Positions 30,147 to 63,645 of a stretch of DNA of 64,000 bases are shown here, one piece after another (position 1 is the stretch's first letter; each line of letters opens with the position of its first letter). The notes below the pieces were generated by a model. The model searched no databases and was not told where the DNA came from. It saw nothing but the letters and a program-made list of their open reading frames with translations. Source of the DNA: Kofleriaceae bacterium (GTDB lineage: Bacteria > Myxococcota_A > Polyangia > Haliangiales > Haliangiaceae). The stretch covers positions 32,001 to 96,000 of the forward strand of contig CBDCCZ010000044.1 in NCBI GenBank assembly GCA_965215005.1. The letters run 5' to 3'. Made by a program: the position numbers and the translations under genes.

Positions 30147-30274
30147 TGGTATCGGTCTTCCCGCGGCGGCGCACTCCAGACGCGAGCGGCGATGCATGCT
30201 CAGCAGCGCCGAGCCGTTGCAGCTTGCTTTTTGCTTGCGTCACGTTATCGTGGGCCCGCTCGGACACATAGCTG

Positions 30275-32050
<1,776 letters not shown>

Positions 32051-57822: not shown

Positions 57823-58104
57823 ATGGCGAAGAAGCAGACACGGCGCAGCATCAGCGTGAGCCGGGTTACCTATGAGCGCCTCAAGGGCTACTGCGAGGCT
57901 CAGGGAGTCTCGATGAGCCAGTTTGTTGAGGCGCGCGTTGGCGACTACCTAGGCGAATCGAAGACCGAAGAGCGAACCACGTTGCCGAGGCCTTCGCGTC
58001 CCGAACCGGTGCCGATGGTGTCGGTGCGGCCTCTTGCGCGAGAGCAACAGCCGGAGGTGAAGGCGCCGCGCAAGATCACCGCCGAGCAGATCTTCACGTT
58101 CTGA
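57823..58104 (+). CDS. Ribbon-helix-helix-like DNA-binding protein
   Basis: RRSISVS (strand), TYERLKGYCEAQG and SMSQFVE (helices). Confidence 0.75.
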   Translation: MAKKQTRRSISVSRVTYERLKGYCEAQGVSMSQFVEARVGDYLGESKTEERTTLPRPSRPEPVPMVSVRPLAREQQPEVKAPRKITAEQIFTF

Positions 58105-58471: not shown

Positions 58472-58852
58472 CTAGCGAGTCACCTGGTCGTCGCTGCCCA
58501 AGGCTGGAAACGTCGCGATCACTTCGGTGGTGATGCCCCCGCGTACGAAGAATTTGCCGGTTACCGTCATCCGTCGTGGTTTGGTGGCGGCGACCAAGTC
58601 ATCGAGAATCTGATTGGTGACGGCTTCATGGAAGGCGCCTTCATTGCGGTAGCTCCACAAGTAGAGCTTGAGTGCCTTGAGCTCCACGCACGTCTGTTCG
58701 GGAACGTACTCGATGGCGATGTGAGCAAAGTCAGGTTGGCCGGTGAGCGGGCAGAGACAGGTGAATTCCGGGCAGTCAAAGCGGATTAAGAACCCGCGGC
58801 CCGGCCGAGGATTTGGGAAGGTTTCGAGAGTTTTGCTCGGGGTGCTCGGCAT
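58472..58852 (-). CDS. queF: NADPH-dependent preQ0 reductase (preQ1 synthase)
   Basis: [32 protein letters not shown]. Confidence 0.95.
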
Positions 58853-59367
58853 CGATTGGCTCCGGCCGCGTACATAGCACGACCTCGGGAGTCGCGCCGG
58901 AGCTCGTGAGCGCACGAGAGTCTGCAATTCAGTGAGCACCCGAGCGGTACGGGCGATGGCATAAAGGGCTCTTGCCGGCGCTTCTGGGCGTCACCCGCGC
59001 GTAACGTCTCGGTAAAGACTGCGTGCGGTGACCCCGGTGGCGTGCGCTTGCGGCGCTAGTGAGGAGGGGGCCGAGGCCGTGCCAAGCTACCTCACGGGTG
59101 GGCGTGCAAATGCTGCTACTTTTTGTAGCGCGGCGGGCACGACGCGCATATGCTGGAGGTACGGCTAACCTCACAGGCCGCCGGTATCACCGCGCGAGCT
59201 CCCAATGCGGGGACCGTGGAGGTGACCGGGGACGGGTCAAAGAAAGGGCCCACAACGAAAGCTCAGCCCACGGGAACCGCCTCCGTTGCATACCACGCTG
59301 TACGCGGCGTGATTGAGCGGGCCGAATAGGCTGAGTGCTGGCATGTAGCCAGGGGAGGTGAGAACGC

Positions 59368-59415
59368 ATGAACCAACACAGTCGTGACTTCAACCGAAAG
59401 GAGCTCTTGCTCTAA
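59368..59415 (+). CDS. 15-aa micro-ORF MNQHSRDFNRKELLL
   Basis: GGAGGTGA at 59354-59361, 6 nt before ATG 59368; TAA 59413-59415. Confidence 0.5.
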   Translation: MNQHSRDFNRKELLL

Positions 59416-59447
59416 CGTCCCTTCGGGACATTGAGTAGGAACTGCGG

Positions 59448-59480
59448 GGGCCTCTGGCGATGAGTCAGAGGCCCTTTTTT
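59448..59480 (+). terminator. Rho-independent terminator
   Basis: GGGCCTCTGGC-GATGA-GTCAGAGGCCC 11-bp stem (one G-U pair) followed by TTTTTT. Confidence 0.9.
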
Positions 59481-59691: not shown

Positions 59692-62600
59692 TCAAGGCAC
59701 GAGCAGCTGGAGGAATGGGATGCCTTCGGCCCCGCTCGTGATCAGCCCGCCGCCGAGTCGAGCGTAGAGTGCGACGAGGGGAGAGCCTTCGTTGGCGACC
59801 GCCTCCAATGCTGAAAGTACCGCCGCGGTATCGTCTTCGTTGCGTGCGCGGAGCAGCAGTGCACCGGTAGCGACAATGCGGCGCATCGCCTGTCGCTCCG
59901 AGCCACGGAGGCGGGCGCCGAGCTCCGCTGGTGATTGCGTGGCTGCCCAGGCAGCCGCGAGTGCGGGCAACATGGCCGCGCGAACATCGTGCGAGGGGTC
60001 ATCGACGAGCGGCTCGAGGAGCGCGACCGCAGCGGCAGGATGGTGCTCGAGTAGGCCAACTGTCGACGCGGCGGCGCGAGCGCGACGCTCTTCGGAGCGC
60101 GAGGCGAGCGCTTCTGCCAACACGGCGCTCACCGCTTCTGGCTCGCCGACCCGCGCCATGGTCGTCATTGCGGTGGTGCTGATGCCTGGATCGGCATCGC
60201 GCATCGCGAGCGTGAGCGCCCGGTCGCGCTCCGCCGGCTCGAGCTCGCGTGCATCACCGAGACGAGCCAGCGCTTGCCGTCGCACCGCCGGATCGACATC
60301 GCTGAGGGCCGCTTGAACTGCGTTGCTGGTGCCGATTCCTGCGGCCAAGGCTGCATCGATAGCGGCGATTCGCACCCGCGGCGACGCATCGGTGACGGCC
60401 ATATCGATCAGCGCGGTGCTCTCGATAGCCTGTGCGGTAGAGATCAGAACCAGTTTCTCGGCCTCATCGGCGCGATCGAAGGCGGCGACGAGCACTTTCT
60501 TGGCTGCGGCGGGAGCCGATGGACCCACTCCGGCGAGCGCCCGAGTGGCGATCAGACGAACGGCGCGATCATCGTCGCGCGCGAGGTTGATGGTGGTCTC
60601 GATAATCTGGTCCGTCGGCTTTCCGTCGCCGCCGAGGTGGCTAGCCAGCACCCGTGCTGCTTCGGCGCGAATGTCCACGTCCACGTCTTGACTGAGGCGA
60701 GTGGCCACCGCGATCGCCGCGTCGGCTTCGCCAGGATGGTCCGCGACGCATTCGATGATCCGCTGTCGCACCTGATTGAACTTGCTCGATGTCGCCGCCA
60801 CCAGCTCGCGGATCGACGGCGAGTGGTTCGCGACTAGACCGCGACATAGTCCTGCGACAGCCGCTTCTTGCAGATCGTCGTCGTCCTCGCGAGCGGCCGA
60901 ACGAAGATAGCTAAACACCGGCGCCGGACTGGTCCGGGCGATTTCCGCGAATGCTTCCGTGGCATAACGCTTGGGCCGGCCGTCGCGCTTCCAGAGCTGG
61001 CGGATCCCGCCGATTGCAGCGCCGACGTTGCCACCGGCTTCGATGCTGTTTGCGAGCCCATACGCCGCGCCAACCGCTACATCGAGGCGCTCGGTTTTGA
61101 TCATTTTATTGAGCTCGTTTTGCGAGCCTCGCCCGGTGTGTCCATAGGCGCGTGCCGCCGCGGCGCGCACTGCAGGAGTATCATCTTTGAGAAGTGCTTC
61201 GAGCGCCGGCCGGGCAGCGCGATCCTTGCGCTGAGCGATCTCACCCCACGCTAGTGCGATGGCTTCGCGCAGCTCGGGACTCAGCTGACCTTGTAGCAAC
61301 ACGATCTGCTCCGCAGCTTTCTGCGGCGCGAGCCGCGCATACAGCGGCAGTGCCGCCGCGCGAACCGCCTCGACTTTGGCTTTCCATGCACGGCTTATCG
61401 AACGAGTGAATTGCTTTGCGAGCGCGCCTACCAGCTCCGTTGAGAGGTTCTCGTACAGCATGCGCAGCGCCGCAACTCGGTCTTCGGTAGCCGCCGTTGC
61501 GGTTTCGGCTAAGGTCGCGGCGGCGACGCTCGCGGCTTGCGGATCTGTTGCGAACGCCCGTCTCAGCAGCGCGTGAGCTTTTTGTCGCGTAGGGGCTGCG
61601 ACGTCTTCGTTGCCAAGCACCGAAACCGCCGATTCGGCGGACGGGGCGGCTTCATCGGTGTCCGCGGCAACGATGGCCAAGAGCTCGCGACGGGCTGCTG
61701 GATTGGGATCCGTTGCCAATGCATCGCGATAGAGCTGCCGCGCGAGGTCTTCTTGCAACCCTCGCACGGCGGAAAACGCGATGCGACGCAGCTCGTTATC
61801 GGTAGACGTGAGAGCCTCTGCGAGGGTGTCGTGATACGCATCTCCACGGCGCCGAGCGGATGACGCGGCGACTCGCAATGCTGCGGCTTGGACTGCAGGA
61901 GAGGCGTCACTCAACGCAGCTTCGACCAGCTCCACCTCTTCGGGGCCGCCGCGGGCGAGCGGCTCGAGTCGCTCGAGTAGCGTGATCATGTCGCCGGGGC
62001 CTTGCACCATTTTACGCAGCCCCGCGATTTCGGTGGGAGCACCGGTGATCGCGTAGGCGATGAGGCCTGCCAACTCATCATCGAGTGCCGCCAACGCAAT
62101 AGCGGCGTAGCCCTCCGCTCGGTCTCCATTGAGGTCGTGCGATGCCACCGCTCGCCACACGTCGGCTTCGACCATGGGATGGGTAAAGCCGGTGTCGGCG
62201 ATCATCGAGCCAAAGGAGGGACTCGCTGGTAGCCAGTGAAACACCGATAAAGCCGGCTTTCCAGCCCGAACTACGAGCCGCTGATCGGCTGCTGGCCCCG
62301 CAACATCAAGATAGAAGCTCCTTGCGAGGACGATGTACACCACCACCAACGAAATGAGCGGGACGGCGACGGCGACGGCGGCAATGATGGTGAAGAAGCG
62401 CCGCGTGCGCTCGATGACCGTCCGCTCTTCCGGCGTGGAGGGGGCGATGTTTTCGCGGCGTAGCGCCCACCACTCGCGCAGCGATAGCCGCGAGCTTTCG
62501 GCCGCTTTGGAACCGAGCAGCTCGAACGCGCGGCGCGCTGCGACCCGCGCCGGCGCCGCGATCTCGCGAACGCGCGGGATCAGGATCTCATGGCTCAACG

Positions 62601-63645
62601 CATAGTGGGTTTGTGAGTCGTCACTGGTGCCAGTCACTGGGACGACGAGCCCCTTGTCGGCGAACACCTCGAAGGCGCGCCGTGCAAACGCTGGATCGAT
62701 GCTTACTCGGCTCGCTGCCCATTCGGGGGCGTAGGCCACTGGCGCCGGATGCGACGCGAGCTCGGCGATGAGTCGCAGCGCGGTGCGTTCACTGCCGGTT
62801 GCGGCAGCCGCACCGGTGATCCACGCGCGGACGAGCTCGAGCGCTCCGCCGATCGCTTCAAGGCCTGCCAGCGTGGTGATCTGCAGCTCGCGGAGCGCCA
62901 TTGCGCTCATCTGGACGTCTGCAGGAAGAACGCCGCGAGCGCCCTGGTCGAGCTCTCGAGCGACCACGGTGGCAAGCTTTGGATCCGCGGCTATCAGCGC
63001 GACTGCTAACGTTCGCTCTAGCACCGAGGAGGCGGTGGCAAGGTCGAAGCGCTGCAGCTCGTACCGGGCGGGTGGGGGAAATAGCGAACCGGTGCGACGT
63101 TCGAGAGCTCCGAAGAGATGCACGCGCTCACTAGCGCAGCTGAACAGGAAGCGGGCGCGACCGCCGGAGCGCGTGACGACGCGGGCGAATAAATCGCCAA
63201 TCTCGCCGATCACCGGATCGTCGCCGCGCGCGAACACCACATCGACTTCATCGAGGATGAACACGTAGAGCTGGCCCGGCAGCGCTTGCCCGACCACGCG
63301 CGCCAGAAATGTCATCGGGTGCTCACCAGGATCGGGCGCCAGGCCAGTGGCTGTCGCAAGGGCGTGGGTGAAGGAATCGATGGGGCGAGTAACGTCTTCG
63401 CAGAACAGCGCCATGACGCCGTGGTCGCGCAGATGCGGTACCAAGCCCGCGCGTAGTAGCGACGTCTTGCCGACGCCGGGCTCACCATAAAGGAGACCCG
63501 CTCGGAAGCCATCGCCCGTTACAAGCTCGGCGAGCTGATCGCGCTCGCGATCGCGACCGAGGAGCACGTCTCGCTCGGACTCGACAAAGGCGCTCAGCCC
63601 GCGGAGCGGAGTCACCGTCCCCGGATAGGTCGCGACTGCCGGCAC
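59692..63645 (-). CDS. P-loop (STAND-like) ATPase - TM - HEAT repeat protein
   Basis: LLGRDRE, GEPGVGKTS, FILDEVD; TM FFTIIAAVAVAVPLISLVVVYIVLA; many LxDxxxxVRxxA repeats. Confidence 0.85.
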   Translation of the reverse strand: MPAVATYPGTVTPLRGLSAFVESERDVLLGRDRERDQLAELVTGDGFRAGLLYGEPGVGKTSLLRAGLVPHLRDHGVMALFCEDVTRPIDSFTHALATATGLAPDPGEHPMTFLARVVGQALPGQLYVFILDEVDVVFARGDDPVIGEIGDLFARVVTRSGGRARFLFSCASERVHLFGALERRTGSLFPPPARYELQRFDLATASSVLERTLAVALIAADPKLATVVARELDQGARGVLPADVQMSAMALRELQITTLAGLEAIGGALELVRAWITGAAAATGSERTALRLIAELASHPAPVAYAPEWAASRVSIDPAFARRAFEVFADKGLVVPVTGTSDDSQTHYALSHEILIPRVREIAAPARVAARRAFELLGSKAAESSRLSLREWWALRRENIAPSTPEERTVIERTRRFFTIIAAVAVAVPLISLVVVYIVLARSFYLDVAGPAADQRLVVRAGKPALSVFHWLPASPSFGSMIADTGFTHPMVEADVWRAVASHDLNGDRAEGYAAIALAALDDELAGLIAYAITGAPTEIAGLRKMVQGPGDMITLLERLEPLARGGPEEVELVEAALSDASPAVQAAALRVAASSARRRGDAYHDTLAEALTSTDNELRRIAFSAVRGLQEDLARQLYRDALATDPNPAARRELLAIVAADTDEAAPSAESAVSVLGNEDVAAPTRQKAHALLRRAFATDPQAASVAAATLAETATAATEDRVAALRMLYENLSTELVGALAKQFTRSISRAWKAKVEAVRAAALPLYARLAPQKAAEQIVLLQGQLSPELREAIALAWGEIAQRKDRAARPALEALLKDDTPAVRAAAARAYGHTGRGSQNELNKMIKTERLDVAVGAAYGLANSIEAGGNVGAAIGGIRQLWKRDGRPKRYATEAFAEIARTSPAPVFSYLRSAAREDDDDLQEAAVAGLCRGLVANHSPSIRELVAATSSKFNQVRQRIIECVADHPGEADAAIAVATRLSQDVDVDIRAEAARVLASHLGGDGKPTDQIIETTINLARDDDRAVRLIATRALAGVGPSAPAAAKKVLVAAFDRADEAEKLVLISTAQAIESTALIDMAVTDASPRVRIAAIDAALAAGIGTSNAVQAALSDVDPAVRRQALARLGDARELEPAERDRALTLAMRDADPGISTTAMTTMARVGEPEAVSAVLAEALASRSEERRARAAASTVGLLEHHPAAAVALLEPLVDDPSHDVRAAMLPALAAAWAATQSPAELGARLRGSERQAMRRIVATGALLLRARNEDDTAAVLSALEAVANEGSPLVALYARLGGGLITSGAEGIPFLQLLVP

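Follow-up and report, generated by a model that had tools for sequence, protein, structure and literature searches.

The window, the stretch of 64,000 nucleotides of Kofleriaceae DNA analysed here, contains a conserved structured RNA gene of myxobacteria that carries a selected micro-ORF and is apparently undescribed, as judged by comparison of sequences. The gene is ∼320 nt long (positions 59161–59480 of the window, forward strand), and is flanked by queF, divergent from it, and by a convergent nSTAND1/HEAT-repeat gene. The reading I favour, with a probability of about 0.45, is that of a free-standing structured RNA whose function would be ribosome occupancy, the peptide being a by-product. 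The features of the locus are the following:

58472–58852, − strand: queF (preQ0 reductase-like; Pfam PF14489, E 4e-33), the divergent neighbour of the RNA gene
59149–59154, + strand: −10 box TATGCT, placing the probable transcript start at ∼59161
59162–59180, + strand: P1, the 5′ hairpin, predicted, with alternative folds; analogous hairpins seen by eye in homologues
59181–59228, + strand: P2, a multi-helix arm (MFE fold and alignment)
59234–59251, + strand: P3, hairpin GGGTC/GGCCC (MFE fold); similar hairpins in many cluster representatives, with covariation judged by eye only
59252–59260, + strand: A-rich linker ending in a near-invariant GAA (AA invariant, G in 42/44, in the model-fitted alignment)
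59261–59268/59329–59336, + strand: P4, GCTCAGCC/GGCTGAGT, enclosing the P5 arm and a variable P6 (whole 59261–59336)
59277–59280/59317–59320, + strand: CCGC/GCGG, which with CGG/CCG forms the P5 arm; invariant in the family, divergent outside it
59278–59284, + strand: CGCCTCC, the proposed anti-SD, window-specific and part of P5/P6
59338–59352, + strand: P8, hairpin CTGGC/GCCAG, directly before the Shine-Dalgarno (SD) sequence
59353–59361, + strand: SD1 (GGGAGGTGA), directly after P8
59368–59415, + strand: micro-ORF MNQHSRDFNRKELLL with its stop, 15 codons
59398–59403, + strand: SD2, the in-ORF SD-like tract AAGGAG, anchored to the stop; 5′ strand of a hairpin in the free RNA
59446–59480, + strand: intrinsic terminator, a 13-bp stem plus U tract
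59692–63645, − strand: nSTAND1 plus HEAT-repeat gene (Pfam), convergent to the RNA; not a constant neighbour

Synteny with queF is confined to the family (Haliangiaceae/Kofleriaceae), where a queF motif is found at 35/39 loci; QueF is absent among the neighbours of 20 RNA loci outside the family, and the flanking genes there vary in identity. By a crude frame test over 69 loci, the downstream gene is opposite to the RNA in 33 and in the same orientation in 24, with no call in 12. The varied neighbours without queF outside the family, and downstream genes in either direction, argue that the RNA is a free-standing gene of its own. A TAnnnT element is seen by eye 6–7 nt before P1 in 21 of 22 aligned homologues, a sigma-70 scan of the window did not call the TATGCT box, and a U run follows the ORF stop in 37/44 representatives. 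An inverted repeat, GCTAC-N5-GTAGC (59115–59129), overlaps the expected −35 of the RNA promoter and is a possible operator. The window's queF has a GGAG 7 nt before its ATG.

A DNA search identified the element in 13/36 family relatives. An exact-pattern scan of all GTDB genomes gave 27 matches, 17 of them titled Kofleriaceae, Haliangium, Nannocystineae, Myxococcales or delta proteobacterium; the remaining 10, in other phyla, were discarded as chance. Model R1, built from 17 loci, ends at the ATG and is blind to the ORF. It matches 125/138 family genomes (70/73 of those of high quality), with a single match in 123 of the 125, and also reaches other families of the class. The broader models R2 and R3 include the ORF, and the loci that they identified outside the family are selected partly on ORF features. 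They match 86/151 sampled genomes of the class, with 40/40, 18/18 and 15/23 in three families, and 0/11, 0/14, 0/11 and 0/5 in four others; ten further genomes, under laxer filters, gave no RNA match. Three of 86 genomes in another class of the phylum were matched, the model searches being confined to the phylum. The tallies of 125/138, 86/151 and 38/40 (6S RNA, below) include one or two unpublished genomes (G084, G085), which were used in no sequence analysis. Weak model matches were dropped as non-homologous (4 + 6 + 1 by eye, plus 1 uninspected), as were viral ones: two pattern scans gave 85 + 5 matches and R3 gave 2 partial matches among the 90, and the one that was read is an ordinary gene start. 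The RNA is vertically inherited, in single copy.

The 336-nt region is more stable than 100/100 shuffles (z −3.2), and the folding energy of the core without the terminator is unremarkable (z −1.3). In the 17-sequence alignment 94.4% of the cells pair, with two-sided changes at 7/22 pairs; in the 44-sequence model-fitted alignment these occur at 10/13 pairs, a figure to be read with the leaning of a fitted alignment toward its own structure. Two-sided changes are found at 6/9 pairs of P4 among the 17 sequences and at 8/8 in the wider fitted alignment, and one pair of P8 is C-G in 22 and U-A in 22 of 44 loci, with further compensatory variants. The CCGC/GCGG helix is invariant in 17/17. Constant across the class are CC, GAA, P4, P8, GGAGG, the start codon, the in-ORF gagg and the stop. 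In these alignments, the P3-linker-P4/P8 core is conserved and covarying. The 3′ strand of P2 holds a further GGAGGTGA (59218–59225), which is base-paired and without a start codon at the spacing of an SD. Three other pairings considered from the folds were rejected, namely a GGCCC:GGGCC pseudoknot, a GGCC hairpin inside P4, and a CCC:GGG helix closing over SD1; this CCC is more plausibly the 3′ strand of P3, and forcing the helix costs 6.6 kcal/mol in the window. Upstream of the core and outside the models, a 5′ hairpin of the type CCGGA-ATGG-TCCGG was observed in distant homologues, at loci L172, L171, L207, L209, L210, L327 and L335.

An initial annotation of this DNA had described an SD, GGAGGTGA, at 59354–59361 with a 6-nt spacer to the ATG at 59368, and the sequence agrees. 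It had also considered so strong an SD notable, which the genome bears out: GGAGG or longer is found 4–13 nt before the in-frame ATG in 117/2626 long ORFs, and GGAGGTGA at that position in only 4/2626. The GGGGAGG of SD1 is invariant in 17/17 and GGAGG is the consensus in 44 diverse loci. The distance of SD1 from the start codon is mostly 9–11 nt.

The same annotation proposed a switch, in which CGCCTCC would leave P5 to form a pseudoknot with the GGAGGTG of SD1. The coordinates of CGCCTCC (59278–59284), of AAGGAG (59398–59403) and of both helices concerned are correct, all 7/7 pairs are possible in the window, and the resulting helix would indeed cross P4. However, this pairing is complete in 1/17 homologues, the window alone, and does not covary: no compensatory change was found, and of the 15 sequences with letters at the pair facing the A of GGAGG, 13 cannot form it. 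CGCCTCC is partly deleted in three short variants, and its pairing with the SD would have to displace the family-invariant CCGC/GCGG helix. Its probability is 0.002 in the nested ensemble, a calculation that cannot model pseudoknots. The 7-bp complement is weak evidence because such complements to GGAGGTG (G-U allowed) arise in 13.5% of 1000 dinucleotide shuffles of 193 nt upstream, or in 3.8% in a stricter form; any upstream 7-nt complement to the SD is present in 3/44 cluster representatives. The switch is not conserved, and I consider it extremely unlikely. A second anti-SD, in the P1 loop (59168–59172; P ∼0.8 in the window ensemble), was also rejected, as the loop is not conserved and the pairing is window-specific.

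The micro-ORF was compared over 146 loci, 100 drawn from the 125 family genomes with a match and 46 from others, after removal of one contig-end fragment and one duplicate. Its length is 12–16 codons in 143 of these, and 18, 19 and 41 in one each; the 41-codon frame (L329, genome G482) has no second SD and is the sole such exception among the 146. In the first 125 loci the start codon is ATG in 123 and GTG in 2. In-frame stops in codons 2–12 are absent from all 115 distinct ORFs, where shuffles predict 43 and frames +1 and +2 contain 14 and 81 early stops; a set of 44 representatives, obtained by clustering on the upstream RNA, also has 0, where 17.2 would be expected. Over 44 close, disjoint pairs dN/dS amounts to 0.66, a value significantly lower than 1 (95% interval 0.51–0.86), and the changes are spread evenly over the codon positions (81/84/94). 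For 27 of the 44 pairs, pN and pS are 0.133 and 0.206 in the ORF and 0.047 and 0.452 in queF, synonymous sites being ∼2× as conserved in the ORF as in queF. These comparisons indicate selection for translation, only weak selection on the peptide, and stronger selection on the RNA sequence than a normal coding sequence has.

Codons 2–8 are strongly enriched in the rare U-ending AGT and TGT, and GTA is found mainly in the NGT|A register (weighted 28, against 2 and 0 in the other registers). The stops of the 146 ORFs are TAG in 85, TAA in 53 and TGA in 8, whereas TGA is the commonest stop in the long ORFs of the genome (1423/2626), a contrast inflated by kinship; the scarcity of TGA may point to release factor 1, or to shared ancestry alone.

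The second SD-like tract inside the ORF, which the initial annotation had already pointed out, is conserved, with the tract present in 56/59 lineage-level ORFs and missing or weak in 3. An SD match of at least 4 nt before the stop is found in 35/44 representatives, compared to 16.6 in shuffles and to 23% of genome ORFs, and SD2 is present in 21/26 representatives found by R1, which were not selected on the ORF. Of the 59 ORFs, 26 have its end 11 nt ahead of the stop and 18 have it 8 nt ahead, which puts it at 8 or 5 nt, respectively, from the final sense codon. Of the 56, 37 read it through an in-frame GAG and 19 through different codons or frames, and its occurrence in several frames and amino acids argues that it is selected as RNA.

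Its predicted pairing to the anti-SD has a mean of −8.9 kcal/mol, compared to −4.7 for shuffled and −3.1 for genome ORFs, the 16S tail used being the textbook consensus, since the assembly holds no 16S 3′ end. The ORF stop lies within a predicted hairpin, as originally described, and the purine tract is predicted to pair downstream with P>0.5 in 83/120 loci. The post-stop strand is anti-SD-like in 31/44 representatives against 27.7 expected, which is at chance level across lineages, so that the constant partner of SD2 is probably not in the RNA. I infer that this partner is the 16S tail, because the hairpin alone need not keep an SD sequence. Over a genus-heavy set, 60/125 loci have the post-stop strand as the predicted main partner of SD1; CCTCCC after the stop is a good match to SD1 in the large genus g14, where SD2 could act as a decoy. 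Re-initiation at SD2 was rejected, a start codon being near the stop in only 2/44.

Across homologues, conservation holds for ORF length, frame and SD geometry and largely fails for the peptide, which favours the capture of ribosomes over a functional micropeptide. The initial annotation had offered both possibilities; its micro-ORF, SD, in-ORF SD and ORF-end hairpin are all conserved, and the switch is not supported. PMC5737721 reports that an SD upstream of the stop slows mRNA release 50-fold in vitro. The occupancy reading would run as follows. In this genome, where strong SDs are scarce, the 5′ core would present SD1 for efficient loading of a ribosome; the ribosome would then melt the ORF-end hairpin, which usually hides SD2; and at the stop, SD2 would be at an initiation-like distance from the P site, where it would pair with the 16S anti-SD and slow mRNA release and recycling. 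The output would be the ribosome-bound versus free state of the RNA, which may either park ribosomes, or report translation and termination capacity through its own fold and stability. Against it, dN/dS below 1 allows some peptide constraint, with Glu commonest at SD2 (37/56), and the large conserved 5′ domain is unexplained by ribosome holding alone. A ribosome-parking RNA in which this domain docks on the small subunit to load a ribosome at SD1, and the 12–16 codons are a ruler for two ribosomes, can be proposed only tentatively and is rather doubtful; one ribosome would be held at the stop by SD2, with the second waiting at, or running in from, the start.

The 5′ domain could instead belong to a ligand- or protein-sensing switch, a possible but doubtful alternative in which access to SD1 depends on the P3-linker-P4/P8 junction, and a bistable post-stop element changes state upon translation, its anti-SD pairing with SD2 or SD1 and thereby controlling the stability of the RNA or exposing an mRNA-acting seed. 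The invariant GAA and CC, with covarying helices, do abut SD1; many family loci have CCTCCC or CCTCTGG after the stop, able to pair with SD1 and P8, and the predicted pairing of the post-stop strand with SD1 and of the purine tract downstream (both above) is in line with such an element. Yet the post-stop anti-SD does not rise above chance across lineages, there is no downstream gene to regulate, P5, the best-conserved internal loop within the family, is not retained beyond it, and no Rfam riboswitch matches at the locus. It seems unlikely that the RNA is the mRNA of a hydrophilic micropeptide that evolves fast, such as a lineage-specific signal, or a dual-function sRNA encoding one, with the structure setting its expression and stability. 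Such a peptide would agree with the dN/dS below 1, with the strictly kept start, frame and length, and with peptides starting M-[QH]-S-T that recur in distant families, but not with changes that are even over codon positions, nor with conserved positions that are codon-specific, as for GTA, and an SD2 that changes frame. The peptides, in which Ser, Arg, Glu and Thr dominate, are hydrophilic with no hydrophobic or export character, and the neighbours examined include no constant processing or transporter gene.

I regard as very unlikely a transcription attenuator or 5′ leader, with readthrough into the downstream gene or antisense into the convergent one. A leader ORF, hairpin and terminator are present in order, SD-like tracts near leader stops have been reported (Li et al., 2012, as cited in PMC5737721), and in the window the 5′ arm of the terminator, CCTCTGGC, can pair with GCCAGGGG. 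This overlap of CCTCTGGC and GCCAGGGG is however window-specific, the forced antiterminator costs 6.5 kcal/mol, there is no run of regulatory codons, and the next gene in the window is convergent. A leader of a constant same-strand operon was rejected, since downstream genes vary in identity and orientation across loci; the attenuator-like trait found at the sequence level is the short ORF with an SD-like tract before its stop.

At the gathering score, Rfam 15 gives no match at the locus and, in the window, only a TPP riboswitch elsewhere (30269–30375, + strand, 72.5 bits); with E up to 10 the locus gives chance matches of 11–16 bits only, and in 14 homologous loci only a neighbouring tRNA is above threshold. 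ARAGORN finds no tmRNA in the window, and a separate tmRNA with the tag ANDNAVALAA is present elsewhere in the genome; RNase P RNA and SRP RNA are located on other contigs of the assembly. 6S RNA was not found in the assembly (G000), probably through an assembly gap, and a replacement for 6S RNA was rejected, as this is present separately in 38/40 family genomes. Also rejected were Pxr sRNA, with no Rfam Pxr (RF01812) match at the locus or the 14 homologous loci and a different described range (a Pxr scan of the phylum gave no match anywhere, controls included, and is uninformative); a preQ1-type cis riboswitch of queF, since G-U pairs, the SD-ORF and the U tract place the RNA on the opposite strand; a queuosine link, the queF synteny being limited to the family; and a type I toxin, for which the peptide is neither hydrophobic nor conserved, given its composition and its dN/dS. 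A full-text literature search, with subscription journals outside its coverage, returned no description of the RNA. The main text of a 50-genome ncRNA survey (PMC11109978) does not mention Myxococcus, Haliangium or Sorangium, and its supplement may bear on novelty.

Several known systems resemble the RNA in part. The mRNA-like domain of tmRNA has a 10–16-codon frame with a hairpin around the stop. Both are short frames ending in a stop hairpin, within a single-copy structured RNA engaged (here presumably) by ribosomes, but the frame described here starts at an SD-ATG, with no tRNA-like domain called and no conserved tag. The dual-function sRNAs SgrS, SR1 and RNAIII are likewise free-standing sRNA genes with their own small ORF; their peptides are longer and conserved, whereas this RNA keeps length and SD geometry while the peptide drifts, and a conserved seed was not identified in it. 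Type I toxin mRNAs share with it a structured 5′ region, a small ORF and a possible fold-back onto the SD, and differ from it in that its peptides are hydrophilic and unconserved, and the gene single-copy and vertically inherited. Among riboswitches, SAM-III and glutamine-II/downstream-peptide have SD-containing junctions or small downstream ORFs; a helical junction abutting the SD, with a short ORF as sole product, is common to these and to the RNA, which has no Rfam match even at the E-value level. Attenuator leader peptides whose stop is preceded by an SD-like tract (Li et al., 2012, as cited in PMC5737721) resemble the RNA in that tract, in their short ORF, and in having a hairpin and a terminator, and in them too translation outweighs the product. 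Unlike these, the RNA has no constant downstream operon or regulatory codon run, carries ∼200 nt of conserved structure before the ORF, and is its own gene. Pxr of Myxococcus is also a free-standing structured myxobacterial sRNA; it is described in PMC5568312 as three stem-loops that arose at the base of Cystobacterineae, and its range, as described there and in PMC5684412, sets the RNA apart from it.

Structured RNA genes that are single-copy and nearly universal are seldom found, and the present one extends over many families of a myxobacterial class. Traits that are usually joined come apart in it, translation and ORF length being conserved and the peptide not, and it keeps an SD fixed relative to the stop codon across deep divergence. 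The effects of SDs before stops on recycling have been measured on model mRNAs (PMC5737721), and the RNA would provide a substrate that is natural and selected for studying them. Should it store or sense ribosomes, it would be a new kind of translational RNA beside tmRNA and attenuators; were the parking reading true, myxobacteria would store ribosomes by means of an RNA, or make a defined stalled or collided pair that signals termination and recycling capacity. Under the rival readings too, it is an unannotated conserved gene of myxobacteria.

Some further observations concern the surroundings of the RNA. The nSTAND1 NTPase/HEAT-repeat protein (59692–63645, − strand) is 1317 aa long with a probable membrane segment, and several genera of the family have its gene in convergent orientation to the RNA. 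Near queF lies a small ribbon-helix-helix-like gene (57823–58104, + strand; weak Pfam RHH_5 match), and sequence similar to it adjoins the RNA in some relatives. Directly downstream of the RNA at locus L172 (1866–3137), a tRNA gene and a phage-integrase-like frame are present.
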